64,000 bases of DNA, taken from NCBI GenBank assembly GCA_965220065.1, contig OZ244804.1:4554431-4618430 (forward strand). Reading direction: 5' to 3'. The stretch comes from Candidatus Poribacteria bacterium. GTDB taxonomy: Bacteria; Poribacteria; WGA-4E; WGA-3G. Under the pieces are notes generated by a model. That model had not been told where the DNA came from and searched no databases. It worked only from the letters and a program-made list of their open reading frames with translations. The stretch's first letter is position 1. Every line of letters starts with the position of its first letter. This document shows positions 12,601 through 58,286 of the stretch, in pieces. Made by a program: the position numbers and the translations under genes.

Positions 12601-13662
12601 AGACAGCGGATGCGTAAAGATGTTCTGTGTCCCGACACTCCCCGCAAAGTCATAACTTTTCCAATACGCCCCGTATCGAGAATCATGACGTTCCACAACG
12701 CGATTGTGATTCGACACACCGGAATCGTTGAAACCCGCACGCCAAACACGTAATCCCGCTGCGTTGCGAATATTTTCGACCACATTCACCTCAAGCCGTG
12801 CCTCTAATTCCCTATCGGTTTCTGGAAGGTCTAAGATGTCATGATAGAGTGGCGGTAAGGAGGCAGTCGCAAGAAACCAATCCACATGAACCAATGGCAC
12901 CTCACAATCCATCGCTTCGCGCAGATTCATTAGTTTTTCACGGAGTGCTGTCTGCGTTGGCGCGTTGAATTCAATCTTGTATGGATATTCCGCCTCAATC
13001 AACGTCCACCGATTGGTTCCGATCTCCCATTCGTAGTTTCGGAGGTCGATATAGAAGATCGTTTCTTTCGGATCAATGGATCGTGGGTTAATAACCTTAC
13101 GCCCCCAAGAGAGACTGTTCACGAGTTTCGAGAGTGCCCGTTGATAGGCGCGGAGTGTCTCAGTCGTCTCACCGGCGTTATAGAGATGTGTCATCGTAAA
13201 ATAGCGGGCGAAGGCACGGTCAAACGGTGCGAGTGAGTTCACATGCTCCTCAATCGTGTCAAGCATCGCCTTGGGTGTAATGAAGGCGGTGTCTCGTTCT
13301 GGCATCTGCCAATCCGGTGCGCCCCTTTGAATCCAATTCCCAATCGTCAGAATTGCGGCGGGAGGCAGTTGGGGTTGACCCAACGGCATCCGTTTTGCCG
13401 GATCGTTTGTGAGGAGTCGCTTATAGAGTTCAGATTCTATCGGTTTCCTCGGAACGACTGTGCCTGTTTCGATGAGTGCCGTATGCTCAATGATGATTTC
13501 CTCAGTAAACGCCCCATGTTCTCCATGGCAGTTGAGGCAGTTTTGCTCAAAGATCGCATACGCCTGTTGTGCAAGATTCTGCTGTGCATCAACACTGTGA
13601 GAGTTGCCCAGAATGAGGGTCAACAGCGAAATAAATATAATAAAAATTTTCCAGTTTTTCAT
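9601..13662 (-). CDS. Giant secreted multidomain protein (copy 3), same architecture as 2661..6686: cytochrome c, LRR, cohesin, dockerin, T9SS CTD.
   Basis: N-term MKNWKIFIIFISLLTLILGNSHSVDA. CLNCHGEHG and CIGCH. LRRs. WQFDIAFDHTMLEAVEVNEGNF cohesin. DVNRDGQVSILDLVLVARNFGK...DLNGDGVINVLDLILV dockerin. LLPNYPNPFNPETWIPY... CTD ending MLIRK. Long stretches nucleotide-identical to copy 2 (e.g. approx 9700-9820 vs approx 2760-2880). Confidence 0.8.
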   Translation of the reverse strand: MKNWKIFIIFISLLTLILGNSHSVDAQQNLAQQAYAIFEQNCLNCHGEHGAFTEEIIIEHTALIETGTVVPRKPIESELYKRLLTNDPAKRMPLGQPQLPPAAILTIGNWIQRGAPDWQMPERDTAFITPKAMLDTIEEHVNSLAPFDRAFARYFTMTHLYNAGETTETLRAYQRALSKLVNSLSWGRKVINPRSIDPKETIFYIDLRNYEWEIGTNRWTLIEAEYPYKIEFNAPTQTALREKLMNLREAMDCEVPLVHVDWFLATASLPPLYHDILDLPETDRELEARLEVNVVENIRNAAGLRVWRAGFNDSGVSNHNRVVERHDSRYGAYWKSYDFAGSVGTQNIFTHPLSFTHDGGEIIFNLPNGLQAYYLADAGGRRLDAAPINIVSNPAASDPTVRNGLSCIGCHTEGMKDFQDTVRGVIQRNANPPFNKDRALQLYTDKGTMDTLVAEDTARYRKALEATGGVFGGIEPVQRFHEAFQRPLDVAYAAAAVGLETETFLQKIRANASLQNLGLLVLENDTMKRDTWTDRFSEIVFALDFPSKSGGASVDSRTERIPGESVYIPDPNLRAVIEEVLGKAPGATITADEMATLETFETLADAKGIRDLTGLEFATNMRDLWLKGNKHISDLSPIAGLHNLWALDIGHNSVSDLSPVAGLTNLAKINIGNNKISDLSPLEELKNLEYFKSWNNFLSDLSPLMKLPNLWNIDICGGDPDISVLKDAKNLKELYLNFCGVSDTDLSTLANLTNLTHLSVAANGRLSDISPLAGLTTLEWLNLRECNISDISPLSGLTNLKWIDLENNNISDFSPLDDLPETTKIFDLFNPGSSVKEGPKIEGPWLWVITPTEGRSLDTDFLAEMSSGEVTELKIATHGATKGALVGSSVWKSHKISSTDNNMNDMANATGLGKGDINNHIAYGSVRVISPREQDIFLFAEADNVGKAWLNGQKVDGTFRGVPRAFPVTLKQGVNFLLVGVYEFDGGWSGYFSFEEGTEYSVSVDPRIGYTFSKPLIYLGDTFTLDLNVENIHNLGGWQFDIAFDHTMLEAVEVNEGNFLKTQGGATFFQRGTIQNRSGKIAGLSSARLSETGVSGTGALLSVTFTAKSAGHTRLRLDNFQLASITGNSITAESHEVVITVAGRLTTGDVNRDGQVSILDLVLVARNFGKTASANSEVDLNGDGVINVLDLILVSQHMGESTASASPSILAMNSMDELNPAMIQAWIEQAQIEDDGSIAFREGIAFLQSLLVVLIPKETALLPNYPNPFNPETWIPYHLANSSEVTITIYDMRGTIVHQLNLGHQHEGYYTGRSRAAYWDGRNDIGESVASGLYFYTLTAGDFTATRKMLIRK

Positions 13663-13698: not shown

Positions 13699-15954
13699 CT
13701 ACTCAAAAGCATTGGCGACGGCGACGAGATCCAGAACATTGACTGTTCCATCGCCATTGACATCTGGGGTATCCTTGCCAAAAGCATTTGCGACAGCAAC
13801 GAGGTCAAGGATATTGACAATCCCATCCGCATTGACATCCGTTGTGGGAGGGGTTTCTAAACCCGATTCCGATTTCAGATAGATTTCACCATCTAAATCA
13901 GGTAGAATGTGCAGGGTGTTGCGTAAACTACTTTCTACACCTGTTGCTTGTTCTATTAGGCGAATAACTTGGGGGGCACCACTGCGGTTATAGACCGCCC
14001 AGCCATTGGTGAACTCTCGGATAAACAACCCCTCTCGGTTCTCATAAAGCTGCGCTTTGGTTTCATCGCCACCAACCGGTTGACCGAGAGGAGCATCATA
14101 GAAGTCGTACCAGTACTTCGTGTTTTGGTGAGTGTGCCGCTTGCCCTGTGCATGAAGATCCGTATGACCTGGCCAAAATTCAAAAGGGTGGGCGGGATGG
14201 TCAAGGGCACCTCCCATGGTAAACATGACATAACCATCGGAATGCGTCAAACTCATCGTCGTCCATAGACGCATCCATTGTAGATTTCTCGAGCTATCCA
14301 GCAGTTCGTTCCTCACGCCCCTGCCTGCTAAACAGTTGATTTGAGGTTCTCGAAGGTTTTCTTCAGCCCACGACAGCGTGCTTTCAATTTCGGAAAGTCT
14401 TGCGTAGGTATAACCGCCCTCATAATCTTCATAAGTTTCCATGAAAACGCCATTGATATATTCCGCATGCCTCGGAATAGTTGTACCAATCGTGTTAGTC
14501 GTCGTTACCAGTATCAAGAAATCCTCACCAACAGCATCACGAATCCCTTGTATGATACGATCCTTTGCGGTATTGGCTTCTTCTACGGTTATATATCCTT
14601 CAAGTGCCTTCGCCCAATGATCTATGGCAATTCCGTCGAAAATCCCACACTTTGCAACTTCAATCGCCTGTTGGATAATCCACTCTTGCGCAGCAGGACG
14701 TGTGAAGTCTATTATATATTCATCCCATGTCGGAATTTCTAATATATTTCCCGATTCATCTCTGAGCCAATATGGCAAATCCTCTGGGTATTCGAGGCGA
14801 GACGCAGCATAGTAATGTATGCCTGTCAGGAGAATCAGATTTGGATTCTGAGCGCGCATCCGATCTATTATTTGCATGGAATCCTCAAGGTTTCCTGTTA
14901 ATTTCCAGCCGTCTGGTGTTGAATTCCAAGCCCACCCGAAACTTACAGCGCAGAAAAACAGATCGTGATATGCTATCCCCTCTTCCCTTGAAAGTTTTGG
15001 GAGGTTCACTATATCCCCACATGCTTGAAAAACCGACGGATGCGCCCTATTTTCAATACGAGGCAGTATAGGGGCTCTCTCTATATCGCAAGTAACTAGA
15101 CGGTGTGTCTTTAGTATCTGAAGGACTTCTGAATCTAATGATATACGTCCCAAAGTTAAGACTTCTATCCCGGCAAGCCCATAAATCGGTGTAAAGTCAA
15201 TGATTTTATTTCTGCTGAGATGCAATTCTTTCAGATTCACCAAGCCTTGTAGCGGTGATATATCTGCTATCTGATTACTTTCAAGTGCCAATCCTTTTAA
15301 GTTGACGAGTCCAGTGAGTGATGAAATATCTTCTATCTGATTTGCTTCAAGTTGCAATTCTTTCAGGTTCACCAAGCCTTGTAGCGGTGATATATCCGTC
15401 AGAAGATTGGCGTTCAGTTCAAGAACCTGTAGTCCCACAAGTCCCGCGAGTGGTGAAATATCTGCTATCTGGTTACGTCCCAATACCAAAACTTCCAGAT
15501 TTATCAAACCTGCAAAGGGCGTTATATCCGAAATTCGATTCTCATACAACTTTAAAACCCGTAAGTTCTCAAGCCCCACGAGCGGTGTTAAATCCGACAC
15601 TTGACTTTTAATAATAGACAAGGATTCTAAGTTCTCAAGTCCCGCAAGTGGCGTTAAATCTGAGACTTCACTTCTGTCAATAACCAAAACTTTAAGATTC
15701 ACGGCATGCTCAAGTCCTTTTAAACTCCTAATATCGGGTTCTATTTTTATTAAGAGAAGATTTTGTAATCTTGCCATGTCGCCAGGGTGTATCGGTATTG
15801 TGTCCGGAACTGCGAGTTCTTCACGGATAGCTTGCTGTAGATTCGGGTCAGGCATCCAGTCTTCTTTGTCTTGGGCGTGTGTGATGTCTCCGAGTGAGGT
15901 AATTAGTAGCAATCCGATCAACATAACTGTAGATATGAATCCATTGATTTTCAT
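13699..15954 (-). CDS. Secreted LRR + GHL-domain protein with C-terminal dockerin pair. True start is the MKINGF signal peptide; the ORF-track extension to 16350 is spurious.
   Basis: MKINGFISTVMLIGLLLITSLGDITHAQ signal peptide, matching the start of gene 19309..21546. Reverse complement of CAT at 15952..15954. LRRs VSDLTPLAGLENL. GHL domain. C-term DVNADGIVNILDLVAVANAFGKDTPDVNGDGTVNVLDLVAVANAFE. Only 36 bp from the upstream gene, so probably co-transcribed. Confidence 0.75.
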   Translation of the reverse strand: MKINGFISTVMLIGLLLITSLGDITHAQDKEDWMPDPNLQQAIREELAVPDTIPIHPGDMARLQNLLLIKIEPDIRSLKGLEHAVNLKVLVIDRSEVSDLTPLAGLENLESLSIIKSQVSDLTPLVGLENLRVLKLYENRISDITPFAGLINLEVLVLGRNQIADISPLAGLVGLQVLELNANLLTDISPLQGLVNLKELQLEANQIEDISSLTGLVNLKGLALESNQIADISPLQGLVNLKELHLSRNKIIDFTPIYGLAGIEVLTLGRISLDSEVLQILKTHRLVTCDIERAPILPRIENRAHPSVFQACGDIVNLPKLSREEGIAYHDLFFCAVSFGWAWNSTPDGWKLTGNLEDSMQIIDRMRAQNPNLILLTGIHYYAASRLEYPEDLPYWLRDESGNILEIPTWDEYIIDFTRPAAQEWIIQQAIEVAKCGIFDGIAIDHWAKALEGYITVEEANTAKDRIIQGIRDAVGEDFLILVTTTNTIGTTIPRHAEYINGVFMETYEDYEGGYTYARLSEIESTLSWAEENLREPQINCLAGRGVRNELLDSSRNLQWMRLWTTMSLTHSDGYVMFTMGGALDHPAHPFEFWPGHTDLHAQGKRHTHQNTKYWYDFYDAPLGQPVGGDETKAQLYENREGLFIREFTNGWAVYNRSGAPQVIRLIEQATGVESSLRNTLHILPDLDGEIYLKSESGLETPPTTDVNADGIVNILDLVAVANAFGKDTPDVNGDGTVNVLDLVAVANAFE

Positions 15955-16241
15955 AAGGCGTATTCTCCTTCTATTAGATAGTAGAAATTGGTTTGTTTTT
16001 CTGGTGTTAGAACTATTTGGGATGGCAACAAGGTCCAAAATGTTGACGCTTTCATCGCTATTGACATCTGCAGGCGATGTGCTTATTTTATAAAAATCTC
16101 GCCGTCTAAATCCGGGATGGTGTGTGATGTGCTGCTGATACGACTCGCAACACCTGTGGCTTGGATCGGCAACTGGATCTGCTATTCTTTGCCGCTGCGA
16201 TTGCAGACCACCCGTCCGAGTTATCATAAGGTCATTTGATA
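15955..16241 (-). pseudogene. Untranslated fossil of a GHL-domain 3' end plus one dockerin repeat, between the T9SS-CTD gene 16242..19211 and gene 13699..15954.
   Basis: Nucleotide homology to the 3' ends of genes 6840.., 13699.. and 21678.. (ttataaaaatctcgccgtctaaatccggg...). Translation gives a remnant like AVYNRSGKE*QIQLP...IPDLDGEIFIK with an internal stop, then FYKISTSPADVNSDESVNILDLVAI (decayed dockerin). Plus-strand ORF 15988..16239 is its shadow. Confidence 0.6.
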
Positions 16242-19211
16242 CTATTTTACGATAACCATTCTCCGCGAATACGATAAACCATCCGCCTGGAGTTGGTAGA
16301 AATAGACACCACTGGCGACGCGTTCGCCGACAGCATTTCTGCCATCCCAATAGGCGGCACGACCCTGACTCGTGTAGTAGCCTTCATGTTGATGTCCGAG
16401 ATTCAGTTGTCGGACAAGGGTACCCCGCATGTCATAGATAGTGATTGTCACCTCACTGGGGTTTGCCAAGTGATAAGGTATCCATGTCTCTGGATTGAAC
16501 GGATTCGGGTAGTTGGCAAGCAACTGCGTTTGTTCAACAACCGTCGTTATCGCAGCAGGCGCAGCAGCAACACCCATCTCTCCTACAGAATCAATCCCTA
16601 AGCCAAGGTCAGCAAGTTCACCTAACCCTGTAATGACATCTTCGATGTTCTCACCGTTGAGGTCGACACGCCGCAGTTTTTCTTTCTCCGCCCAATAGAG
16701 TTTACCGCCTACCCTATCCACGACAACTTGACCCGGAGACGCCAAACCTGTGATGAAATTCGGCTGAAAGTCGGAACCATTGAGGTTCATGCGTTGAAGT
16801 TTTCCCCATGCGTTGGTTAGGTAAAGTTTCCTGTTTACAGCATCAAGCACCATGCCGCGGGGCACACTCGTTAGTTTCTTGACTAATTGCACATTGGATC
16901 CATCAAGATTGGCACGCTGGATCTTTCCAGTTGTCTTACCGGTTTGCTCCGTCCAATAGAGTTGACGATTCGTTGTATCTAAGACGAGGTTCTGCGGAGA
17001 CTTCAAGTCTGTAACAAGGTTGGGTTGAAAGTTTGATCCATCGAGATTCATACGTTGGATTTTCCCCCAGGCGTTGGTCAAGTAGAGTTTTCCATTTGCC
17101 ATATCAAGTGCGATGTCGAGGGGTGTGCTTGTCAACTCTCTAACGATTTGGATGTTTCTGCCGTCAAGATTTGCGTTTTGGATTTTCCCGGTTCGCTGGC
17201 TTGTTTGTTCCGTCCAATAGAGTTTTCCACCTGCTGCATCCACGGCGAGACGGGTCGTCTTTTGCACACCTACCTTTAGGTTTTCCACTTTATCAGCACT
17301 GAGTCGTTGGAGTGTGCTTGTTTGGGCATCTACCCAATACAGGGGTAGGTATTTTCCGGGTGCGACCTGCGGAATAGTTTTCAGATAAATCTCGCCATCT
17401 AAATCTGCCAACGTATGCCGGCGTTGATTCTCCACACCGCTGTCCCAGCCAGAGACTTTCCGCGGAAGTTCTATCTCCTGTGCCGTGCCAGAGCGGTTAT
17501 ACACCGCCCACCCGTTGGTGAACTCACGGATGAATAAACCGTCAATCGTCTCGCCAGCGCGGTTGATGTAGCGTTGACCTTTCGTTTCATCACCGCCAAC
17601 CGGACGACCAAGTGGTGCCTCAAAGAAATTATCCCAATAGTGCTGCTTTGAGTGAACATGGCGCTCGCCCCGTGCGTGTAAATCTGCATGACCTGGCCAA
17701 AATTCAAAATGATGGACAGGATGGTCAAGGTGGCTACCCATCGTAAATAGGACATAGCCATCTGAATGTGTCAGACTTAGTGTTGTCCATAGGCGCATCC
17801 ATTGAATATTTCGGGGGCTATCAAGTAGTTCGCTCCGAACACCCCTACCTTCCAAACAGTTGATTTGCGGCTCTCGGAGATTTTTTTCTGCCCATAACAG
17901 CGTGCTTTCGAGACGAGCGAGTTCTGCGTGGGTATAACCCCTTTCATGATTTTCAATCGTTTCCATATAAAGTCCATTAATGTATTCTGTATGCTTTGAT
18001 GAAATCTTATCACCAGTAGTTGTTACCAATATCAAAAAATCATCACCAACAGCTTCACGGATACCTTCTATGATACGATCCTTTGCATTCGCAGCGGCTT
18101 CATAGGTTATAGGTCCTATTCCTTCATTAGTCCACTGATCCATGTGAATTCCATCAAAAATTCCACACTTTGCAACTTCGGTAACTTCTTGGATAATCTT
18201 TTCTTGTACAGCAGGATGTGCAAAGTCTATGACATATTGATCCCATGCTTGAAATTTAAATCTCTTTCCCGCAGCATCTCTGAGAAAATATGGCCAATCA
18301 TCTGGATAGTCGTCGAAACCTGCAACATAGTAATCTACACCTGTAAGGAGAATAATATTTGGATTCAGATCGCGTATCTGACGTGCTGATATCCCATCCT
18401 CCTCGGGGTCGCCTATGATTTTCCTACCGTTTGCTGTGTGTGTCCAAGTCCACCCAAATGTTTCACCGCACCTAAATAGGTCGTGATAGGCTATTCCCTC
18501 CACCCACGAGAGTCCTGGCAGGTTGATTATATCCCCACAGGCTTGAACAAATGCAGGATATGTTATATTTTCAAGACGAGAACCTATCGGTTCTCGTGCA
18601 ATTTCACAAACAACTGGACCGTCTACTGGATTCAGTCTCTGCAGGACTTCTGCGTCTAAAGGTATCCCTGATCTTGCCAGACCCAACCGTAATGTTTCTA
18701 TGCCGGTAAGCCCATAAATCGGTGTAAAATCGACGATCTGATTTTCTGCTAAGTCCAATATTTTGAGGTTTACCAACCCTTTAAGCGGCGAAATATCTGA
18801 AATCTGGTTATGTCCCAAGTTCAACTCTTCCAGATCTATCAACCCTGCGAGGGGTGTTATATCCGTAATCCTATTATAACCCAACCCTAAGCCGCGTAAA
18901 TTTTCGAGTCCCGCAAGCGGTGTTAAATCCGACACTTTCGTAAAATTGATGGCTAAGAATTTAAGATTGATGGCGTGTTCCAACCCTTTAAGACTCTGAA
19001 TTTTTTTAAGATCAGCCTTGAATTTACCATCAGCCACAAAGCGATAGAGGCGTTGCATATCCGCAATCGTCAGTGTTTCAATCCCCAACTTCTCCGATAT
19101 GGCGTGGCGGAGGGTCGGATCCGGCATCCAATCCGCTGCGTGCGCCAGCGAGCAGACGATGGAGAAAAAAATCAGTCCCACAAATACAAATCTATGAAGT
19201 TTCATTTTCAA
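16242..19211 (-). CDS. Secreted LRR + GHL-domain + YWTD (LDL-receptor class B) beta-propeller repeats + T9SS type-A C-terminal domain protein.
   Basis: Signal peptide MKMKLHRFVFVGLIFFSIVCSLAHA. LRRs ITDITPLAGLIDLEEL. GHL domain IDFAHPAVQEKIIQEVTEVAKCGIFDGIHMDQW. Repeated GGKLYWTEQT..GKIQRANLDGSN..LYLTNAWGKIQRMNLDGS units (YWTD-type). C-term LLANYPNPFNPETWIPY...YFYQLQADGLSYSRRMVIVK. Confidence 0.8.
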   Translation of the reverse strand: MKMKLHRFVFVGLIFFSIVCSLAHAADWMPDPTLRHAISEKLGIETLTIADMQRLYRFVADGKFKADLKKIQSLKGLEHAINLKFLAINFTKVSDLTPLAGLENLRGLGLGYNRITDITPLAGLIDLEELNLGHNQISDISPLKGLVNLKILDLAENQIVDFTPIYGLTGIETLRLGLARSGIPLDAEVLQRLNPVDGPVVCEIAREPIGSRLENITYPAFVQACGDIINLPGLSWVEGIAYHDLFRCGETFGWTWTHTANGRKIIGDPEEDGISARQIRDLNPNIILLTGVDYYVAGFDDYPDDWPYFLRDAAGKRFKFQAWDQYVIDFAHPAVQEKIIQEVTEVAKCGIFDGIHMDQWTNEGIGPITYEAAANAKDRIIEGIREAVGDDFLILVTTTGDKISSKHTEYINGLYMETIENHERGYTHAELARLESTLLWAEKNLREPQINCLEGRGVRSELLDSPRNIQWMRLWTTLSLTHSDGYVLFTMGSHLDHPVHHFEFWPGHADLHARGERHVHSKQHYWDNFFEAPLGRPVGGDETKGQRYINRAGETIDGLFIREFTNGWAVYNRSGTAQEIELPRKVSGWDSGVENQRRHTLADLDGEIYLKTIPQVAPGKYLPLYWVDAQTSTLQRLSADKVENLKVGVQKTTRLAVDAAGGKLYWTEQTSQRTGKIQNANLDGRNIQIVRELTSTPLDIALDMANGKLYLTNAWGKIQRMNLDGSNFQPNLVTDLKSPQNLVLDTTNRQLYWTEQTGKTTGKIQRANLDGSNVQLVKKLTSVPRGMVLDAVNRKLYLTNAWGKLQRMNLNGSDFQPNFITGLASPGQVVVDRVGGKLYWAEKEKLRRVDLNGENIEDVITGLGELADLGLGIDSVGEMGVAAAPAAITTVVEQTQLLANYPNPFNPETWIPYHLANPSEVTITIYDMRGTLVRQLNLGHQHEGYYTSQGRAAYWDGRNAVGERVASGVYFYQLQADGLSYSRRMVIVK

Positions 19212-19308: not shown

Positions 19309-21546
19309 TTAGAAACTATTCGCCACCAGCACAAGGTCTAAGACATTCACCGTGCCATCGCCGTTGACATCTGGGGTATCCTTGCCAAAAGCATTTGCGA
19401 CAGCAACGAGGTCAAGGATATTGACAATCCCATCCGCATTGACATCCGTTGTGGGAGGGGTTTCTAATCCCGATTCCGATTTCAGATAGATTTCACCATC
19501 TAAATCAGGTAGAATGTGCAGGGTGTTACGTAAACCACTTTCTACACCTGTTGCTTGTTCTGGTAGGCGAATAACTTGGGGGGCACCACTCCGATTGTAA
19601 ACCGCCCAACCGTTAGTGAACTCGCGAATGAACAGCCCCTCGCGATTCTCATAAAGCTGCGCTTTGGTTTCGTCGCCACCGATTGGGCGACCCAAAGGCG
19701 CATCCCAAAAATCGTACCAAAGCGTCCTAATATCGGGGTGACCCGAACTCACATTGACATACCCATCTGAATGCGTGAGGCTGAGCGTTGTAAACTGACG
19801 CACCGTGCGTTGGCTTGTTAGAGGTTTATGATCAACTTGACCCCATAAAAGCGTAAAAGTCGGTTCTCGCAAGTTCGATTCATACCACTTTATAATGTTC
19901 TCAAAATGATACAAAGTTTTATGTGTGTAGATTGGTTTTGGACCAGCTTCTATAAAAACACCGTTGATATACGGCGCAGACTGTGGAAGTTCTTCCGTTG
20001 AATTAACCATAATCAAAAAATCATCTGGGACATTCGCCCGGATCCCTTGAAGTATTTGGAGCCTTGCATTCAGTTCATCTTCTTTCGTTACGAGATGGCT
20101 GAGTTCACCCCGAAAATCACCCTCCAACTCCTTCCAGCGATCCAGCCAGATACCATCATATAGTCCACACTTTGCAATCGCAACAGTTTGTTGAATTATT
20201 ATTTCGATAACATCGGGATGTGTAAAATTGAGAAGGGGTTCCGAATACTTGTTACCGAGACGATCTACTTTCCATATACGACGTGCTATTGAACCGTCCT
20301 TATTTCGGAACCAATAAGGCGAGTCTTCAGGAATATTGAAGAAACCCCCATCGAAATATCCAATCGCAACAATAAATATCATATTCGGATTTTCACGGAT
20401 CGCCTCCCTATGGACGTGCGAGAGATGTGCTATCGTTTCACGCGATCCAGTCCGTACCGCACCACCAAATGGAGAATTAAAGGTACGTGGATGAACAAGT
20501 GGATGGAACGGCTCGAACATGAAAGAGAAATCGTAGTGGACCAACTGATTGAATGGATCCGGATCTTCTTCATAGTTGCTCCTTTTATGTGTCAGAAAAA
20601 CAGATGGATAGTCGCGATTCTTAATTCGTTCTGCCACAGTGGCGGTATCGGAAGGTCTTGGGTGTTCACAGATAAAATTTTCTTCTGCTGCCTCAAGATG
20701 CGATGCGTCTATACCTATAAATTGGTTCCCTAATGGAATCGGATTCGGATAGATAACAAGGGTTTTTAAATTCGTTAGACGCACAAGGGGCGTGAAATCT
20801 GAGATGGCGTTATTCTCTAAAATAAGTTCCTGTAGCCCTACCAATTCCGCAAGGGGTGAAACATCTGAAATCTGATCGCCCTGTAGACTTAACACTCTGA
20901 GGTTTTGTAAGTTTACCAGCGGTGTCAAATCCGAGATCAAACTACTCCCTAAACGAAGTTCCTGTAGCCCTATCAATCCCACAAGCGGTGTAATATCTGA
21001 AATCTGATTGTCATGTAATTTCAAGCATTGTAGGTTTACCAACCCAGAAAGGGGTGAAATATCCACAACTTCATTGCTTTTCATTCGTAAGTCTTGTAGC
21101 CCTATCAATCCTGCGAGCGGTGAAATGTCTACAATTTGATTGTTATGTAATTCCAAGCGTTGTAGGTTCACCAACCCAGAAAGGGGTGAAATATCCGTGA
21201 TGCGATTATAATTCAACTTCAAGACCTGTAAATTCTCAAGTCCCGCAAGGGGGGCTAAATCTGAGACTTCACTTCTAATAACAAACAAGCCCCGAAGGTT
21301 CACGGCATGTTCGAGCCCTTTCAAACGCTGAATATCGTGTTCTACTATTAGATGGTTTAATCCCGCCATATCTGTGGGATGTATCGGTATTGTGTCGGGA
21401 ATTCCTAAATTCTCACGGACCGCCCGCTCTAAGTAGGGATCCGGCATCCAGTCTTCTTTGTCTTGGGCGTGTGTGATATCTCCGAGTGTAACTATCAGTA
21501 GCAATCCAGTCAACATAACTGTAGATATGAATCCATTAATTTTCAT
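19309..21546 (-). CDS. Secreted LRR + GHL-domain protein with C-terminal dockerin pair (paralog of 13699..15954).
   Basis: MKINGFISTVMLTGLLLIVTLGDITHAQDKEDWMPDP. LRRs. Divergent GHL domain (LNFTHPDVIEIIIQQTVAIAKCGLYDGIWLDRW). Tail identical to gene 13699..: DVNADGIVNILDLVAVANAFGKDTPDVNGDGTVNVLDLVLVANSF. Confidence 0.75.
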   Translation of the reverse strand: MKINGFISTVMLTGLLLIVTLGDITHAQDKEDWMPDPYLERAVRENLGIPDTIPIHPTDMAGLNHLIVEHDIQRLKGLEHAVNLRGLFVIRSEVSDLAPLAGLENLQVLKLNYNRITDISPLSGLVNLQRLELHNNQIVDISPLAGLIGLQDLRMKSNEVVDISPLSGLVNLQCLKLHDNQISDITPLVGLIGLQELRLGSSLISDLTPLVNLQNLRVLSLQGDQISDVSPLAELVGLQELILENNAISDFTPLVRLTNLKTLVIYPNPIPLGNQFIGIDASHLEAAEENFICEHPRPSDTATVAERIKNRDYPSVFLTHKRSNYEEDPDPFNQLVHYDFSFMFEPFHPLVHPRTFNSPFGGAVRTGSRETIAHLSHVHREAIRENPNMIFIVAIGYFDGGFFNIPEDSPYWFRNKDGSIARRIWKVDRLGNKYSEPLLNFTHPDVIEIIIQQTVAIAKCGLYDGIWLDRWKELEGDFRGELSHLVTKEDELNARLQILQGIRANVPDDFLIMVNSTEELPQSAPYINGVFIEAGPKPIYTHKTLYHFENIIKWYESNLREPTFTLLWGQVDHKPLTSQRTVRQFTTLSLTHSDGYVNVSSGHPDIRTLWYDFWDAPLGRPIGGDETKAQLYENREGLFIREFTNGWAVYNRSGAPQVIRLPEQATGVESGLRNTLHILPDLDGEIYLKSESGLETPPTTDVNADGIVNILDLVAVANAFGKDTPDVNGDGTVNVLDLVLVANSF

Positions 21547-21677: not shown

Positions 21678-24425
21678 TTATTTTATAAAGATCTCGCCAT
21701 CTAAATCCGGGACGACGTGTGATGTGCTGGTGATACGACTCGCGACACCGGTCACAGGTTCTGGAAGTTGGATCTTCTGTGCTTTCCCACTTCGGTTATA
21801 GACTGCCCAGCCATTGGTGAACTCCCGGATAAACACCCCCTCGCGATCCTCATAAAACTGCGCTTTGGTTTCATCGCCACCAACCGGTTGACCGAGAGGA
21901 GCGTCATAGAAGTCGTACCAGTACTTCGTGTTTTGGTGAGTGTGCCGCTTGCCCTGTGCATGCAGATCTGCATGACCTGGCCAAAATTCAAAAGGGTGGG
22001 GGGGATGGTAAAGGTGACCACCCATGGTAAATAGGACATAACCATCAGAATGCGTCAGGCTCAGTGTTGTCCATAGACGCATCCATTGTAGATTTCTCGG
22101 ACTATCCAGCAGTTCGCTCCGAACGCCCCTGCCTGCCAAACAGTTGATTTGCGGTTCTCGGAGATTTTCTTCAGCCCATAACAGCGTACTTTCGATGTGA
22201 GAGAGTCCTGCGTAGGTATAACCGCCCTCATAATCTTCGGTAGTTTGTATGAAAAGTCCATTAATATATTCCGCATGCCTCGGAATAGTCGTGTCGGTAG
22301 TCGTTATCAGAATCAAGAAATCATTACCTACGGCATCACGAATACCTTTTATGATACGATCCCGTGCGGCATGCTCTTCTTCCACGGTTTTATTATATCC
22401 TTCAAATTCGTGCCCTTTCGTCCAATGATTTATGGCAATTCCGTCAAAAATTCCACACTTTGCAACTTCAATTGCCTGTTGGATAACCATCTCTTGCACA
22501 GCAGGATGCGTGAAGTCCAGGAAAGAGTGATCCCATCCTTGAGATCTAAGTCTATTTCCCGATCCATCTCTGAGAATATATGGCGAATCCTCTGGATACG
22601 CATCGTCGTCTGCAGCATAGTATTCTATGCTTGTAAGGAGAATCAGATTTGGATTCTGAGCGCGCATCCGATCTGGCGCGCTCCTGGCCTCCTCAAGGTC
22701 CCCTATTAATCTCAGGTTTCCGTCCGGTGTTGGAGTCCAAGTCCACCCGAATGTTTCACCACAAAAAAACAGATCATGATAGGCTATTTTCTCCTCCCGC
22801 GAGAGTCTTGGCATATTGATTATATCCCCACATGCTTGAAAAACCGACGGAAGTACCCTGTTTTCTATACGAGGACGTATAGGTGCTCTCGCTATTTCAC
22901 AAATAACTGGAGGATCTACTGGTTTCAGTCTCTGAAGAATTTCTGGGTCTATCGGTATATCTCCCAGATCCAATCTTTCTAGCCCGACAAGCCCGTGAAG
23001 AGATGTAAAGTCAATGATCTGATTTCCTCTCAGAAGCAACACTTTGAGGTTTACAAACCCATCAAGGGGTGTAATATCTGAAATGTTGTTGTGAGATAGG
23101 TTTAAGTCTGTGAGGTTCACAAGTCCAGCGAGCGGTGTTAAGTCTGAAATGTTGTTGTGGGATAGGTTTAAGTCTGTGAGATTCACAAGTCCAGCGAGCG
23201 GTGTTAAGTCTGAAATGTTGCTGTCATAAAATTTCAAAACCCTGATATTCTGTAACCCGGCAAGGGGTGTTAAGTCTGAAATGTTTGCTCTAAGGATATC
23301 AAGGAATTCTAAGTTCACCGCGTGTTCGAGACCCTGAAGATTTGTGATGATGCCTTCGGCACGTATCTCTATATCTGTCAAACGCAACAGATCACGAGGG
23401 GTCATAGGGATATTGTCTGGAATCTCAAGACGTTCTCGAACAAACCACCGGAGATTCGGATCCGGCATCCATGTCTCAACAGTTTCGGGATGCACCGGTA
23501 ATCCAGTTGTTGAGACAGTTTCAGATCCCTGTGAGCCAGTACCAGTGTTTTTATCTAACGCTGTAGCCTGTCCCACTTGATTTCGCAGGGCGGGTTTCAC
23601 ATCAGTCTCAAGAACGACGGGTGCGTCAATGATTACAACGGTCGGTTCGGATTGTGCCTCGAAACTGTAGGGTTTCTGGAATCGGGCGAGGTATTGATTG
23701 CTCGTGCCAAGGAGTAATGCGAGCAGAAGAAAAGCCGTACCGAAAGCGATCCATGGAATAACCGGTTTTGGCGTTGTTTGCGGCATTGACTTTATGTCAG
23801 CGACCCGCTGCATAATGTTTTGGCTGACACTCACCGGTATCTGCACGCCACCGAGGACTTCTTGAACAAGGAGTGCTTCTTCCTCTTGTAACCGCTTGCG
23901 TGCCCGATACAACCGATTATGAACTGCGCTTGCAGAGACACCCAAGAACTTACTAATTTCTTTCACCGTCATTTCGCCAAGATAGAAAAGCGTCATGACG
24001 GTCCGCTCACTCTCCGGGAGTTTTTCGAGAAGTGTTTTGACGATAGCACGGCGACGCTCGGTGATTTCTGTCTGCTGTTGTTCCGATACGTGATGAGTAT
24101 AAGAGGATTTCTCTATTTCTTCCACGGGTGTGTCCTCCAACGATTGTATCGTAAGATTTTTCTGACGCATCCGATCAATACAAAGCCGATTTGCAATGAC
24201 ATACAGCCACCCAGCAAATTTATAGGGGTCCTTAAGCGTCGCGAGTCTTTTATATACCTGAAGGAACGTATCTTGTGTAATCTCCTCGGCATCGTGGAAA
24301 TCGCCGATCTTCCGCCACGCGAGGGCGTGGACACTTTTCTGGTGCCTGTGGACCAAGACATCAAACGCCGCTTCATCGCCTGATAATATTCTTTGTATGA
24401 GTTGAACATCGCTTTCTTTTTCCAC
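21678..24425 (-). CDS. Second ECF sigma-70 factor / transmembrane helix / LRR + GHL ectodomain fusion protein.
   Basis: Sigma region 2 (HALAWRKIGDFHDAEEITQDTFLQVYKRL) and region 4 (ERTVMTLFYLGEMTVKEISKFLGVSASAVHNRLYRARKRL). TM segment VIPWIAFGTAFLLLALLLGT. Linker FQKPYSFEAQSEPTVVIIDAPVVLETD shared with gene 6840... LRRs ISDLTPLAGLVNLTDL. GHL domain LDFTHPAVQEMVIQQAIEVAKCGIFDGIAINHW...FIREFTNGWAVYNRSG...DLDGEIFIK. Confidence 0.8.
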   Translation of the reverse strand: MEKESDVQLIQRILSGDEAAFDVLVHRHQKSVHALAWRKIGDFHDAEEITQDTFLQVYKRLATLKDPYKFAGWLYVIANRLCIDRMRQKNLTIQSLEDTPVEEIEKSSYTHHVSEQQQTEITERRRAIVKTLLEKLPESERTVMTLFYLGEMTVKEISKFLGVSASAVHNRLYRARKRLQEEEALLVQEVLGGVQIPVSVSQNIMQRVADIKSMPQTTPKPVIPWIAFGTAFLLLALLLGTSNQYLARFQKPYSFEAQSEPTVVIIDAPVVLETDVKPALRNQVGQATALDKNTGTGSQGSETVSTTGLPVHPETVETWMPDPNLRWFVRERLEIPDNIPMTPRDLLRLTDIEIRAEGIITNLQGLEHAVNLEFLDILRANISDLTPLAGLQNIRVLKFYDSNISDLTPLAGLVNLTDLNLSHNNISDLTPLAGLVNLTDLNLSHNNISDITPLDGFVNLKVLLLRGNQIIDFTSLHGLVGLERLDLGDIPIDPEILQRLKPVDPPVICEIARAPIRPRIENRVLPSVFQACGDIINMPRLSREEKIAYHDLFFCGETFGWTWTPTPDGNLRLIGDLEEARSAPDRMRAQNPNLILLTSIEYYAADDDAYPEDSPYILRDGSGNRLRSQGWDHSFLDFTHPAVQEMVIQQAIEVAKCGIFDGIAINHWTKGHEFEGYNKTVEEEHAARDRIIKGIRDAVGNDFLILITTTDTTIPRHAEYINGLFIQTTEDYEGGYTYAGLSHIESTLLWAEENLREPQINCLAGRGVRSELLDSPRNLQWMRLWTTLSLTHSDGYVLFTMGGHLYHPPHPFEFWPGHADLHAQGKRHTHQNTKYWYDFYDAPLGQPVGGDETKAQFYEDREGVFIREFTNGWAVYNRSGKAQKIQLPEPVTGVASRITSTSHVVPDLDGEIFIK

Positions 24426-24760
24426 GAGGGGTCCTCCTAATGAACAGTTGGGGTGTGTCCGTGTTCGCCAAAAGGCTTAATCAGATGCCGAGTCTTTTGA
24501 AATTGCACAGGGCGATACGGTTCATACCCTCTATTATTAAAGACGAAGTTTTGGGCAGGAAATTCGCATAATTTGAAAAAATAAGAGAAATCAGGATTTT
24601 TTAGAAGTCGTTCTGCGGATATCGGGTTCTGAACACGGGATAAAGTCCGATTGTGGAGGGAAAATACAGGGTGGATGTCCTTGAAAGGATTTTTCGAGAG
24701 ACAGGAGTGGTTACAGGGATGCTCCTTATGTGTCAATTTTAGAAAAATTTATGTGACCTC

Positions 24761-25001
24761 GTAGGTTGGGTTGAGCGGAATTGAGACAGACAACGTGGGT
24801 GCCCCAAGCACATTTCATCCGCCTATCCCATCACATCAATCAAGGAGATAGCGAAACCCAACGCCATCCCGCTCCCTATGTAGAATCTGAGAAGGAATAT
24901 GTTGGGTTTCACTGCGTTTTTGGAGCTATATGTGGGTCTGTCAGATTTGATGTATTTTCAAACCATGGCGTTTTATGCCAATCCCGTTCAACCCAACCTA
25001 C
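24761..25001. repeat. MITE-like element copy A: 18-bp terminal inverted repeats with a nested internal inverted repeat.
   Basis: Left arm gtaggttgggttgagcgg at 24761. Right arm ccgttcaacccaacctac at 24984..25001. Internal gcgaaacccaacgc ... gttgggtttcact pair. Same termini and inner arms as copy B at 26850..27078; the middle sequence diverges. Confidence 0.6.
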
Positions 25002-25188
25002 GTTCCTGATTATCGGTTATGGTGGGGTGTGGACAATTCTCATCCCTCTGAAATGCAATCCATACTCTATAGGATGGACGCACTGCCTCTTAAAGTCCCC
25101 TGATAAGGGGGTTTAGGGAGTTAAATCGCTAAACAACGGCTTTTTTTCGGAAATATATCGCCTTTTCACGCAATTTGCGCCCGTCCTA

Positions 25189-25947
25189 TTAGAAATAGGT
25201 CTCTAATTGCGCGCGTGCGTTTGCGACCCCGTCAATAATCGGTTGTGGTGTTTCCGCTTTCAACCCCAAATAGATGAGCATAATCTCCTCGGTGTAGCCG
25301 ACACGGTCTATCTCCTGACAGATAGCAGGAAAATCCATCTCTGGTGCCCAGAATGGCTCGCTGCCTGTCTGTGAATCCACACCACAGTTGAAATAGACGC
25401 TGATCAACCGCTCCGACAAGGTGCGTAAAGCGACGACTGGATCGTCTCCGGCGCGATGGAAATGAAACGGACTGTAGTAGAAACCGAAGTTTTCGGCGGA
25501 GATCGCATTGAGGATGTGTTGCGTGCGTTCCAGATTGTAAGCCATGCTCCCTTCGTGGGCGTAGAGCATAAGGGTTAGATTACGAGCCTGTGCCTCTTCG
25601 GTAACCGTTTGGAGATGATCAATAATCGTTTCAATCTCGCGGGCGGTGGCTTCTTCTTTGCCACCACTCGCGATGCTGACGAGTGGAATGGAAAGCCTTT
25701 GGGCAGTATCAAGAATTTCGATTAACGCCTCGAGTCCGTCTGGCGCGTCAACCGCCACAGTACTCAACATAGATTTAAAACGGAGCCCGGTCTCCTCTCG
25801 GAGTGCGGCGATCGTTTCGGCTTCCACAACCGAATAGTGAGTTTGGGCGAGTTCAATCGCGGATACGCCCTTTTGGGATAACCCACCTACAAATTCCGTC
25901 AATTGGTAAGGGGAAAATGGGAGGGTGCTTGCACAATAGGTTCTCAT
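25189..25947 (-). CDS. Sugar phosphate isomerase/epimerase (xylose-isomerase-like TIM barrel, AP endonuclease 2 fold).
   Basis: Family-typical length and composition (…YAHEGSMAYN…FYYSPFHFHRAGDD…). Start chosen at MRTYCAS (reverse complement ATG ending at 25947), which makes an ATGA 4-bp start/stop overlap with the upstream gene 25944..26720. The ORF-track start at 25977 is also possible. Confidence 0.6.
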   Translation of the reverse strand: MRTYCASTLPFSPYQLTEFVGGLSQKGVSAIELAQTHYSVVEAETIAALREETGLRFKSMLSTVAVDAPDGLEALIEILDTAQRLSIPLVSIASGGKEEATAREIETIIDHLQTVTEEAQARNLTLMLYAHEGSMAYNLERTQHILNAISAENFGFYYSPFHFHRAGDDPVVALRTLSERLISVYFNCGVDSQTGSEPFWAPEMDFPAICQEIDRVGYTEEIMLIYLGLKAETPQPIIDGVANARAQLETYF

Positions 25948-26720
25948 TTTCCCATCTCCTTCAGCGCACTCAGGCAACGTTCAACAGCCTCAAGTGGTGG
26001 GAAGGCATCACTTTCATATTCAACGATGTACCATTTCGTGCCACCGGTGGTTTCACAGACTCGGAAAATCTCGTCCCATGGCACACTGTCTTCGCCGATA
26101 ACCGGACGGAAACCGGCGTGTCTATCTACCTCACCCAGTGATTCGGTGTAGGGTTTGAGATGAACGGTGCCAGCGCGTCCCGGGTATCTCTCCAGAATGC
26201 CGACGAGATCCGCACCACCAGATAACGCATTGCCCATATCCAGTTGCATCACAACGCCTTCATTGGTGTTCCCAAAGAAAGTATCCCACGGGAGCTCGCC
26301 ATCGAGCGGCGAAAATTCGACGTGATGGTTGTGATAACCCGTTACCATACCGTGTGCGGCGAGTTTATCCGCGATTCCATTGAAAGTCTCTGCTAACTTC
26401 AACCAGTCTGCCCGCGATTGACGCAGTTCCCCCGGGATACCCGGAACGATAACATACGGGTTTTCCAGGACCTTGTTAAATTCGATTGTTTCATCAAGGG
26501 TATCCTCTTGGACGAGGTTGAAGGGGGTGTGCCAACCACAACAGATCAAGCCGAACTCGTCAAGCAAGCCTTTCAACTCCTGTGCGGAGTGTTGCGGTGG
26601 ACCCGCGAATTCAACACCTTCATATCCCATCTCGGCGACCGCTTTTATCGTGCCTCGGACATCTTCTGCCAACTCATTTCGGACGGAGAACAGTTCTAAA
26701 CCAATCGGTATTCTGGACAT
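25944..26720 (-). CDS. Sugar phosphate isomerase/epimerase (xylose-isomerase-like TIM barrel), second of a tandem pair.
   Basis: MSRIPIGLELFSVRNELAEDVRGTIKAVAEMGYEGVEFAG... is a typical family N-terminus. Start at 26720 with RBS gaaaggaaaattATG. The ORF-track extension to 26939 runs into the MITE copy-B inverted repeat (IPFNPTYDT is a translation of the repeat arm) and is rejected. Confidence 0.7.
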   Translation of the reverse strand: MSRIPIGLELFSVRNELAEDVRGTIKAVAEMGYEGVEFAGPPQHSAQELKGLLDEFGLICCGWHTPFNLVQEDTLDETIEFNKVLENPYVIVPGIPGELRQSRADWLKLAETFNGIADKLAAHGMVTGYHNHHVEFSPLDGELPWDTFFGNTNEGVVMQLDMGNALSGGADLVGILERYPGRAGTVHLKPYTESLGEVDRHAGFRPVIGEDSVPWDEIFRVCETTGGTKWYIVEYESDAFPPLEAVERCLSALKEMGK

Positions 26721-26849
26721 AATTTTCCTTTCTTTTCTACTGGAAATTTGTATCGTAAAGCCTACAATTAAGGCATACTTCGTGTGCCTACTACACAACA
26801 GTTGTCTGTAAGAAATCTTTGTATTCTTATCTGTGAAAACATAAGTGTC

Positions 26850-27078
26850 GTAGGTTGGGTTGAACGGAATCTTACTGAAAATCGCATAGAGAAGATAATT
26901 TTCCAGTTCATCAAGAAACCTGAAATCACCAAGGGACAAGTGAAACCCAACGCATTTTCACACCGATAGTGTTGGGTGTTGGGTTTCACTATCTCTATCT
27001 ACAGGGACAATTCATCGAAAATCGGCATTCTCCGTATAAACCGGAGGGTTTTGGTCTTTACCGCTCAACCCAACCTAC
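26850..27078. repeat. MITE-like element copy B, same orientation as copy A.
   Basis: gtaggttgggttgaacggaat at 26850. ccgctcaacccaacctac at 27061..27078. Internal agtgaaacccaacgc ... gttgggtttcact pair. Confidence 0.6.
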
Positions 27079-27095
27079 GGTCACATCTATATTTT

Positions 27096-27215
27096 GGACT
27101 TACGCAGGTTCCTCTTTTGTAGCACAAACTGTTAGTTTGTGTCAGAAGACCGGCTGCTTTTTTTCAAAATTCCCATCTAACAGAACATACCACGATCAAA
27201 ATTGCGTAAGTCCTG
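27096..27215. repeat. Small palindromic element bounded by 11-bp inverted repeats (ggacttacgca / tgcgtaagtcc) and carrying the TGTAGCACAAACT-N3-AGTTTGTG motif, abutting MITE copy B.
   Basis: ggacttacgcagg at 27096. Motif ttgtagcacaaactgttagtttgtgtc at 27118..27142. tgcgtaagtcc at 27203..27213. Related unit at 58242..58286. Confidence 0.5.
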
Positions 27216-27245
27216 TATATTGTTATTATCAAGCTCAAATCTTTG

Positions 27246-28685
27246 TTATCGTGCTGTGTAATTGGGCGCGAGTGGACATATCCGAGAAAGTGCCAACAGT
27301 GCGACGCGTGCCAACCCGTGAATCAGGTACGCCGCTCCCATTTGCGACTCATACCAGTCAATCCCGGATGCGCCGAAGGGGAGCGTCTCTGGAAAATAGA
27401 CCTCCAACACCGTTTCTGCCAATTCAATGCCGCCTTCCAGCCACACCGACTCACCCGTGATGTCGTAGAGATCCGCAAACAGCTCAAGCGTAAGACCGGC
27501 ATCGGATGCTGGAATCTTAAATCCTTCTGTGTGAACACGATCGATTGGGAATTTCTCTGCAAGATAAGTATTGCCAACCACGCGTGCCCATTCCATTAAC
27601 TTCTCATTCTGTGTCAATCGCCAGCCACCGAGACACAGCACCGCAGTGCCGCACACGGTTCCTGCACCGTAAACGCTGCCCCACGTTGACATGCGCTCAA
27701 AAATCCGATGCGTCTCACACTCGCAGAGACTGACGAATTCGCGGGTTTCAAGGTTGTGTGGTGCAGCGAGAAATCCGTCAATGTAGACCAAGCCGTAGTG
27801 CCGCATCTGGTCCGCCAATTCCGGTAGGAGCGATTCTAACAACGCGGCGGATTCAAGGAGACTCATCCCTAACGAGAACGTCTGTGTCGGAGCGTTCTTC
27901 TCAAAAAACCGTTCGTCCTCTTTCGGCGAGCGACTCTCAATACGCAAAAGTCCACGCGCATCCCGTTTCTCCCACCAATAGCTGGTATAGTTCTGAATCT
28001 GTTGGAGGGTTTCAGGACGTTGATCTTGCGTATACGCGAACGCCAAATCGAAGATGTAAAAACCTGAATGACGTGGAAAATCGCAGGCACGGGCACCGCG
28101 AGCGAGATGTGCTTTTGTGTCAATATTCGCATGGCGGATGTATTCAAGTCCGTTCCCTTCTGTCCAATGATAATCCAATCCGTCTGCGAAACTCTGTACA
28201 CAGGCAGGGTTAAAGATATTCAGTTTTTGCCAGATCCAGAGCGGAACCTTGCGCAGATGGTCGTGAATTGCAGTACCCCCTGCTGGGTTTCGTGAACATC
28301 CAACCCGTTCCTCAATGAGTTGCCAGAAGGCGTGTTCACCCCAAGGGAATAATCCTGTTGTCGTATTTGTGCAATTCTGGGCAAAGTGCTTCAGGTATCG
28401 ATCTACAGTTTCAGCATATTCCGGTTTCGATTGGCTTTCAGCGAGTGCGTTCATCGTGGCAAGTAATGGTTCATCATGAATCAAATTGGAGCCGAGATGT
28501 GCTCTGTCGCCGTCCCGTTGTCCCGGAATCTTGGTTGGTTTCTCCGTGAGCATATCGCCGGTTTGTGGATCCAGAATTGACGGGAACAGACCTTTGTATG
28601 GCTCACTGCTTTCGATAAGTTGGTCGATAGCATGGCATATTTTCGTTAGAATGACTTCTGGGTTCATCGCAAATAAGGCCTCCAC
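27246..28685 (-). CDS. Hypothetical 479-aa protein of unknown function, embedded among sugar isomerase/epimerase genes.
   Basis: Long uninterrupted ORF with no recognisable motif. The start could be the internal MNPEVIL at 28667. Confidence 0.5.
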   Translation of the reverse strand: MEALFAMNPEVILTKICHAIDQLIESSEPYKGLFPSILDPQTGDMLTEKPTKIPGQRDGDRAHLGSNLIHDEPLLATMNALAESQSKPEYAETVDRYLKHFAQNCTNTTTGLFPWGEHAFWQLIEERVGCSRNPAGGTAIHDHLRKVPLWIWQKLNIFNPACVQSFADGLDYHWTEGNGLEYIRHANIDTKAHLARGARACDFPRHSGFYIFDLAFAYTQDQRPETLQQIQNYTSYWWEKRDARGLLRIESRSPKEDERFFEKNAPTQTFSLGMSLLESAALLESLLPELADQMRHYGLVYIDGFLAAPHNLETREFVSLCECETHRIFERMSTWGSVYGAGTVCGTAVLCLGGWRLTQNEKLMEWARVVGNTYLAEKFPIDRVHTEGFKIPASDAGLTLELFADLYDITGESVWLEGGIELAETVLEVYFPETLPFGASGIDWYESQMGAAYLIHGLARVALLALSRICPLAPNYTAR

Positions 28686-58241: not shown

Positions 58242-58286
58242 GGGCTTACGCACTGTAGCATAAACTGTCAGTTTGCGTAAGTCCTG
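58242..58286. repeat. Palindromic promoter-region unit: cttacgca / tgcgtaag arms flanking GTAGCATAAACTGTCAGTTTGCG, about 90 bp upstream of gene 58376.
   Basis: gggcttacgcactgtagcataaactgtcagtttgcgtaagtcctg. Same core as 2166..2190, 2200..2224 (reverse) and 27118..27142. Related arms at 27096 and 27203. Confidence 0.5.

Follow-up and report, generated by a model that had tools for sequence, protein, structure and literature searches.

Nested inverted repeats beside two isomerase-like genes of Candidatus Poribacteria as probable RAYT-associated REP doublets with long loops

A 64,000-nucleotide stretch of a Candidatus Poribacteria genome (contig OZ244804.1, positions 4,554,431 to 4,618,430; hereafter, the window) contains two nested inverted-repeat elements, here denoted copy A and copy B, that fill the intergenic regions on both sides of a tandem pair of isomerase-like genes. 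With a probability of about 0.85, these elements represent GTAG-type doublets of repetitive extragenic palindromes (REPs) associated with REP-associated tyrosine transposases (RAYTs), each doublet being a tail-to-tail heterodimer similar to the REPINs (REP doublets forming hairpins). The layout of the repeats, which is that of REPs, their dispersal without target-site duplications (TSDs) and their linkage to RAYT genes together favor a REP/REPIN-RAYT system over a miniature inverted-repeat transposable element (MITE) with terminal inverted repeats (TIRs) and TSDs, and over an RNA gene. The places of the two elements and their outer and inner arms, as described in an initial annotation of the window, are borne out by a reading of the sequence from 24600 to 27300 and by a repeat finder.

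In copy A (243 bp), the outer arms (24760-24783 and 24979-25002; CGTAGGTTGGGTTGAGCGGAATTG / CAATCCCGTTCAACCCAACCTACG) are 24 nt long and 92% complementary, and enclose inner arms at 24850-24862 and 24901-24913 (AGCGAAACCCAAC / GTTGGGTTTCACT). Copy B (231 bp) has 19-nt outer arms with 95% complementarity (26849-26867 and 27061-27079) and 13-nt inner arms that are fully (100%) complementary (26939-26951 and 26978-26990). Apart from the 19-24-nt outer arms, CGTAGGTTGGGTTGARCGG, and the 13-nt inner arms, AGYGAAACCCAAC, the two copies have nearly nothing in common. The 18-mer GTAGGTTGGGTTGARCGG occurs four times without a mismatch in the window, compared to 0.07 expected; a fifth match, with three mismatches, is intragenic and is taken as chance. 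The difference between the two copies, initially placed in the central approx 100 bp, is genuine but is not limited to the center, since everything except the four arm motifs differs. The same orientation of the copies, which had been stated, is not supported either: their interiors align equally badly in the direct (73%) and the inverted (75%) orientation, the inverted matches I1 and I4 of the repeat finder equal or exceed the direct matches D1 and D2, and the arm variants suggest the opposite (I1, I3 and I4 against D1-D3), with a GAGC-half followed by a GAAC-half in copy A and a GAAC-half followed by a GAGC-half in copy B. Just outside the GAGC-type arms, the left flank of copy A (24744-24759) and the right flank of copy B (27080-27095) also are similar in inverted orientation (AAAATTTATGTGACC / GGTCACATCTATATTTT); the inverted repeat thereby reaches 35 nt at 80%, which could reflect chance or a longer common origin of both units.

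The repeat unit is the half of approximately 101 nt, not the 235-bp whole. Each half follows the formula GTAG + GTTGGGTT-GA-xy ... y'x'-GA-AACCCAAC, and because the outer-arm core GTTGGGTT complements the inner-arm core AACCCAAC, each half can close on itself. All four units in the window start with GTAG; the distance from GTAGGTTGGGTTGA to GAAACCCAAC in these halves is 78, 78, 77 and 77 nt, with 73-74 nt separating xy from y'x', and the sequences in between are not alignable. With a GTAG head and, next to it, a stem that forms an imperfect hairpin, each unit is laid out like a GTAG-type REP (PMC3733652). Both doublets in the window are heterodimers of a GAGC/AGCG-type unit and a GAAC/AGTG-type unit.

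A scan of one representative genome per species with the pattern GTAGGTTGGGTTGA-N(65-90)-GAAACCCAAC yielded at least 117 loci with conserved arm motifs; the counts of units, doublets, TSDs and extragenic locations reported below are drawn from the fetched loci, which are denoted by L-numbers. These loci come overwhelmingly from metagenome-assembled genomes (MAGs) of Candidatus Poribacteria, often with several loci per genome and up to eight in one, and a minority of the listed loci belong to Desulfobacterales, filamentous cyanobacteria and Chloroflexi. A local duplication confined to the window, an alternative raised at the outset, is ruled out by the copies at these other loci. The GTAG head is demanded by the scan pattern; it is also present in the RAYT-flanking copies that were found independently, via the protein. 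Unit length peaks at 100-103 nt, and 135 of the 137 units are located outside ORFs (open reading frames) of 150 aa or more. The loci include 35 tail-to-tail ('+-') doublets, with spacers of 21-44 nt, and no head-to-head ones; in maps built with relaxed motifs, 56 solo units, 33 full doublets and 10 forms with a unit plus an inner arm were found, again with no head-to-head pairs. The same heterodimer types recur elsewhere (L006 and L052, from one genome, L077, L097 and L082). The genome of the window was sampled through the window itself, which holds four units.

Several other arrangements were seen among the scan loci. In seven loci from Desulfobacterales (L084, L091, L081, L009, L027, L032 and L059), the loop of a REP encloses a short REP from the same family in the opposite orientation (O+ ... 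[I- O-] ... I+, where O and I are the outer and inner arms), and in three loci (L014, L066 and L094), the arms are interleaved in a form of 128 bp, O+ I- ... I+ O-. One solo long-loop unit is located inside a MITE of about 255 bp with perfect 20-nt TIRs (CAGGGGAAACGCATCTAAATT ... AATTAGATGCGTTTCCCCTG) that occupies unrelated sites in several Poribacteria genomes (L018, ~5640-5900, L021, L054, L063, L065, L083, L106 and L112) and is present twice in OZ244829.1.

The elements of the window themselves had been considered potential MITEs. A classical MITE is a deletion derivative of an insertion sequence with a DDE transposase, is recognized via its TIRs and is inserted with a TSD; the 19-24-nt terminal inverted repeats, small size and intergenic position of copies A and B are compatible with this description, and the TA within CGTA/GG...CC/TACG could in principle hide a TA duplication. 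However, no consistent TSD, which the initial annotation had suggested looking for, was detected among 42 full doublets: there are just chance matches of 0-3 nt with no steady length or sequence, and the TA-duplication model (CGTA/.../TACG) is unsupported beyond a palindromic C...G extension in about half of the doublets. Furthermore, solo half units, each lacking a TIR partner, outnumber the doublets, no transposase bounded by these TIRs was found in 0.9 Mb of loci, the ORFs between arm pairs being housekeeping genes, and the short-hairpin form of the motif flanks the gene for a Y1 transposase (see below). The elements thus are a dispersed non-autonomous family, as the MITE idea implied, but with the half as the unit and a Y1/HUH enzyme as the probable partner, and an origin as classical MITEs appears highly unlikely.

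The variation of the arms points in the same direction, given that covariation links the outer arm to the inner arm of its own half, which the TIR model does not predict. The stem consists of eight Watson-Crick pairs, a tandem G.A/A.G mismatch and two covarying pairs. Within a unit, GAAC goes with AGTG, GAGC with AGCG, GAAT with AATG and GAGT with TACG, such that the observed xy:y'x' combinations are AC:GT, GC:GC, AT:AT and GT:AC. Across 148 distinct pairs of arms, the eight core positions show Watson-Crick pairing in 91-99%, the tandem mismatch is retained in about 80%, and the xy positions pair in 73%, compared to 53% in shuffles (maximum among 1000 shuffles, 60%). Compensatory variants of the core also exist (GTCGGGTT/AACCCGAC in L202 and GTCGTGTT/AACACGAC in L135).

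The length of the loop is bimodal, with either 1-10 nt or 59-83 nt (mode 73-75). All but one of the 137 Poribacteria units are of the clean long-loop form, and in the matches outside Poribacteria, the short form occurs in arrays or nested, e.g., GTAGGTTGGGTTGAG-GCA-CGAAACCCAAC. The interiors are diverse, with 104 clusters among 165 units, although some subfamilies are common to several Poribacteria species. Their in-register identity is weak, 0.30-0.32 compared to 0.25 when shifted, which points to a common origin with few indels or to a constraint on position; apart from this weak signal, no conserved interior sequence or structure was detected.

The suggestion that the elements are structured non-coding RNA genes or cis-regulatory RNAs, with conserved stems and free loops, draws on the fact that whole elements fold far better than shuffled sequences (z -5.2 to -6.7), on the covariation in the stem together with a few G-T pairs, and on the proposal that the transcripts of many REPs function as RNA hairpins (PMC3733652). 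The stem pairs indeed covary, but no excess folding of the loop and no conserved interior pairing was found. When only the interiors of 119 units were shuffled, the mean energy was practically unchanged (-23.3 kcal/mol for the native sequences and -22.7 kcal/mol after shuffling), so the folding excess is ascribed to the arms. In the predicted folds of the doublets, the outer and inner arms pair, and about 2 x 65 nt are left unpaired. No Rfam family matches the window at the gathering score, and nothing matches within the elements at E<=5. The folding is equally good on either strand, and no orientation bias is seen for the genes next to the 137 units. Moreover, many divergent copies per genome next to a dedicated transposase gene are not what is expected of an RNA gene. 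Thus, beyond the REP stem there is no support for an RNA gene, and we regard this explanation as very unlikely.

RAYT genes were sought with queries from the supplement of PMC3733652, using phmmer against six-frame ORFs of all loci, and two were found, in L050 and L034. The gene in L050 (3157-3696) starts 40 bp past a cluster that consists of a solo unit and a full doublet. Its product matches the NCBIfam model NF047646 (REP_Tyr_transpos, REP-associated tyrosine transposase) with 199 bits against a cut-off of 80, as well as Pfam PF01797, and is similar to the TnpArep structure in PDB entry 4ER8 (E 1e-39 over 172 residues), with conservation of the HUH motif (HLH) and of the region of the catalytic tyrosine. 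Judging by this similarity, the RAYT of the units belongs to the Y1/HUH clade near E. coli TnpArep/RayT, and the genes are flanked by the same REPs. Together with three Poribacteria contigs of 3.1-6.8 Mb (L201, L202 and L203; two of these are closed chromosomes), in which long-form units and doublets lie on either side of the RAYT gene, four Poribacteria loci contain a RAYT gene that adjoins the units. The closest homologues of the L050 protein are encoded in Poribacteria (71-94% identity), followed by filamentous cyanobacteria and Anaerolineae (64-70%), and some of them are already named REP-associated tyrosine transposase. The taxa of these homologues overlap those of the REPs in the listed scan loci (Poribacteria, cyanobacteria, Chloroflexi and Desulfobacterales).

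The linkage extends to metagenomic sequences. A metagenome scan with the L050 protein identified 80 loci at 47-68% identity, and in 40 of these, GTAGGTTGGGTTGA with up to two mismatches occurs within a few kb of the gene. In the usual layout, a short-loop REP (O+I+) precedes the RAYT gene by 30-90 bp and an inverted partner (I-O-) follows it at 10-60 bp; short-loop REPs that flank a RAYT gene in inverted orientation constitute a classical REPtron. Long regular tandem REP arrays are located directly upstream of the RAYT gene in L203 (1265-2462), L122 (2212-2956) and L123 (71-973), with a period of about 185 bp in L203; in the metagenomic loci, the period is about 160-250 bp. The second RAYT gene from the phmmer search, in the region 5440-6760 of L034, is flanked by a different short GTAG REP, GTAGGGTGGGCACTGCCCACC / GTAGGGTGGGCACTGCCCACCAT; Poribacteria therefore can hold more than one REP-RAYT pair. 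A duplicated fragment from the 3' end of the L034 gene comes after it, along with the REP pair.

Two further classes of elements have to be compared with the REP-RAYT assignment. First, the units could be ends or derivatives, akin to palindrome-associated transposable elements (PATEs), of IS200/IS605-type elements that encode TnpB, or insertion targets of such elements. TnpB genes (NF040570, 235 bits) are present in 5 of the at least 117 loci (L057, 2251-3489; L119, 2852-4063; L013; L078; L082), and in L057 and L119 the gene begins 100-300 bp from a doublet. Yet, most units have no TnpB gene nearby, where there is one it is variously located upstream, 660 bp downstream or at a distance of 1.6 kb, and the linkage with RAYT, at 40 of the 80 loci, is far stronger, which makes a TnpB connection extremely unlikely. 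Clustering of the ORFs near the units returned just common Poribacteria gene families in addition to TnpB in the five loci. A second suspected cluster of TnpB-like ORFs was identified as an enolase-family dehydratase.

Second, the arms bring to mind the attC recombination sites of integrons, with a core, GTTRRRY, and an inverse core, RYYYAAC. The 7-mers GTTGGGT and ACCCAAC fit this degenerate consensus, and the inner arm pair comes in the attC order, with a span of ~60 nt. In the half units, however, the order is reversed, GTT... coming first and ...AAC last, and it is because of this motif order that the idea was dropped. In addition, neither an integrase nor a cassette-like array is found among the neighbors in the window, which are long ordinary genes, and the GTAG head, the RAYT linkage and the symmetry of the doublets are foreign to attC. 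The probability of this explanation is virtually negligible.

Under the REP-RAYT interpretation, the stem, folded from single-stranded DNA, would be bound by the transposase, which would then cleave at the GTAG head, in both cases by homology with E. coli TnpArep (4ER8). Units or doublets would then be excised, copied or rejoined into other extragenic sites without a TSD; in this view, the doublets in the window are passive passengers of two intergenic regions. The GTAG tetranucleotide and the mismatched stem have been reported to be required for the cleavage of REPs (Ton-Hoang, 2012; Messing, 2012; both as cited in PMC3733652). By analogy, the Poribacteria RAYT may mobilize the units, with GTAG as the putative cleavage site, and the units may also affect transcripts.

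Several observations weigh against this interpretation. Published REPs have stems of 5-13 bp and loops of 2-20 nt, at most 27 (PMC3733652), and both the loops of the window units and the general mode of 73-75 nt are far beyond this range; with a loop of such length, the 8+2-bp stem may not fold on its own. No RAYT gene was found in the 64-kb window, and none could be tied, via cluster membership, to the 5.39-Mb contig of the window. The doublets at two places in one genome (L006 and L052) have partly common flanking sequence, which leaves the limits of the mobile unit blurred. A subfamily of the solo units is carried within the larger, ~255-bp MITE with its own TIRs. Finally, the polymorphism at the copy-A site, described below, involves replacement of the whole intergenic region rather than clean insertion or excision.

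The closest known counterparts are the GTAG-type REPs and REPtrons (Nunvar, 2010; PMC3733652). Like the Poribacteria units, these have a GTAG head that abuts an imperfect palindrome with a conserved internal mismatch, are extragenic, reach high copy numbers without TSDs and flank the gene of their own RAYT, and come as singles and as tail-to-tail dimers with variable spacers of 20-100 nt, including heterodimers with different interiors. GTAG families are on record in cyanobacteria, Desulfatibacillum and Chloroflexi (Di Nocera, De Gregorio and Rocco, 2013; PMC3733652). The Poribacteria units differ in the 73-75-nt loop, which is unstructured and constrained in length but free in sequence, and in that the dimers in the scan loci are tail-to-tail, never head-to-head. 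The REPINs (Bertels and Rainey, 2011; PMC3116915) similarly consist of two inverted REPs and a spacer that can form one long hairpin, and a single-copy RAYT gene lies beside REPIN clusters. However, REPINs are ~100 nt long and nearly fully paired, in contrast to the Poribacteria doublets of 225-250 nt with two unpaired internal loops of ~65 nt, and the covariation in Poribacteria favors pairing within a half over pairing between halves. Among RAYTs, that of Poribacteria is most similar to E. coli RayT, a member of Group 2 (PMC5581495). On the evidence of protein homology, the L050 enzyme and E. coli TnpArep/RayT (PDB 4ER8) appear to be counterparts whose REPs both have GTAG and a mismatched stem, although the loop of the E. 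coli REP is short. Inverted heterodimers of two REP variants also are found in the bacterial interspersed mosaic elements (BIMEs) of E. coli, the variants being Y and Z there and GAAC/AGTG and GAGC/AGCG here; unlike BIMEs, the Poribacteria doublets have yielded no conserved spacer motifs, such as IHF sites, and their unit is three times larger.

The elements had been called novel. In kind they are not, given the good descriptions available of GTAG-headed REPs and their RAYTs (PMC3733652, PMC3116915). The long-loop architecture of the Poribacteria REPs nevertheless looks new: no description of it was found in the searchable literature, and full-text searches returned nothing relevant for the motif or for Poribacteria combined with REP. 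A tentative and rather doubtful extension is that the Poribacteria have a 'long-loop' REP in which the stem recognized by the RAYT and the GTAG head surround an insert of ~75 nt with a constant length and a nearly free sequence, the length being functional. If function, and not shared descent with few indels, accounts for the constant length, the units would be REPs carrying cargo; the length might serve a protein-binding or regulatory platform or meet a geometric need of the Poribacteria RAYT, and a RAYT would be able to mobilize hairpins whose loops are ten times longer than those on record. Most work on REP/REPIN-RAYT systems has been devoted to Proteobacteria. Here, a specific REP sequence is tied to a RAYT clade common to Poribacteria, filamentous cyanobacteria, Chloroflexi and Desulfobacterales, the uncultured sponge-associated Poribacteria are found to be rich in such REPs, and the long-loop, length-constrained variant stretches the accepted definition of a REP. 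In practice, the units lead to spurious extensions of ORFs and to short 'hypothetical proteins', and in MAGs they are hotspots at which intergenic sequence varies between strains. With regard to the window, the finding is an ordinary one, namely two selfish or domesticated repeats beside two sugar-isomerase-like genes. The coordinates of these features are collected in Table 1.

Table 1. REP doublets, their component units and the flanked genes in the window
Feature	Positions	Strand	Evidence or comment
Copy A, tail-to-tail doublet of two long-loop REP units, 243 bp	24760..25002	.	Repeat finder I2, 24-nt arms, 92%
Copy A, left REP unit, GTAG head, GTTGGGTT-GA-GC ... GC-GA-AACCCAAC, 102 nt	24761..24862	+	xy:y'x' = GC:GC, perfect pairing
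Copy A, spacer between unit tails, 38 nt	24863..24900	.	Unit scan
Copy A, right REP unit, GAAC ... AGTG type, 101 nt	24901..25001	-	Unit scan
Copy B, tail-to-tail doublet of two long-loop REP units, 231 bp	26849..27079	.	Repeat finder I5, I12; identical in three assemblies
Copy B, left REP unit, GAAC ... AGTG	26850..26951	+	Interior in a 9-member subfamily, also in Poribacteria genomes L029, L026, L056, L101
Copy B, spacer, 26 nt	26952..26977	.	Unit scan
Copy B, right REP unit, GAGC ... AGTG, one G-T wobble in xy pairs	26978..27078	-	Unit scan
Flanked gene 1, AP_endonuc_2 / xylose-isomerase-like TIM barrel, 252 aa	25189..25947	-	Bystander, outside the element
Flanked gene 2, AP_endonuc_2 family, 258 aa	25944..26720	-	True start is the ATG at 26720; bystander

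Three strain variants of the region (L001, L002 and L003) were available for comparison, and among these co-occurring strains the intergenic region of copy A is hypervariable. Copy B and the genes that flank it are near-identical in all three, copy B itself being identical. The copy-A site is complete in L002, which matches the window; in L001 (4529-5235, corresponding to 24420-25192 of the window), it holds a unit plus an inner arm (O+ I+ I-) fused to other sequence, and in L003 (4529-5125, the same window interval), it is replaced by a wholly different sequence. A clean empty copy-A site was not obtained among these variants, the site in L001 being a mosaic. Because the isomerase-like genes are present regardless of whether copy A is complete, half or replaced, these genes are bystanders, not cargo. 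A composite transposon carrying the two genes is rejected accordingly, given that the genes persist without copy A and that ordinary genes are often bracketed by units, which is common because the units are dense in intergenic DNA. As the initial annotation had proposed, copy B is behind a spurious N-terminal extension of the second gene: the ORF 25944-26939, which starts with TTG, enters copy B, and three independent assemblies call the ATG at 26720.

Two other small hairpins are located near copy B. A second GTAG-headed hairpin, GTAGTAGGCACACG-NN-GTGTGCC..., unrelated to the units of copies A and B, occurs in the window at 26768-26794 (minus strand), 54 bp from copy B, and at 63771-63797 (plus strand), with two exact 14-mers and one match with two mismatches (58738-58751) compared to 0.16 expected. 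Among the other fetched loci, it was found only in L001-L003, at the same site, and it possibly represents another small REP class. A perfect hairpin, CACAAAC-TAACA-GTTTGTG, lies just outside copy B (27123-27141); a related copy is present at 58259-58277, and another relative is found within the replacement of copy A in L003 (~4720-4760). Given these related copies at several sites, this hairpin appears to be another short dispersed repeat. Upstream of copy A, the region 1-24425 of the window is a run of large minus-strand paralogous genes with internal repeats of 66 nt (22 aa), e.g., 2661-6686, 9601-13662, 13699-16350, 16242-19211, 19309-21546 and 21678-24425. The product of the last of these genes joins sigma-70 regions 2 and 4 with leucine-rich repeats, as identified by Pfam.

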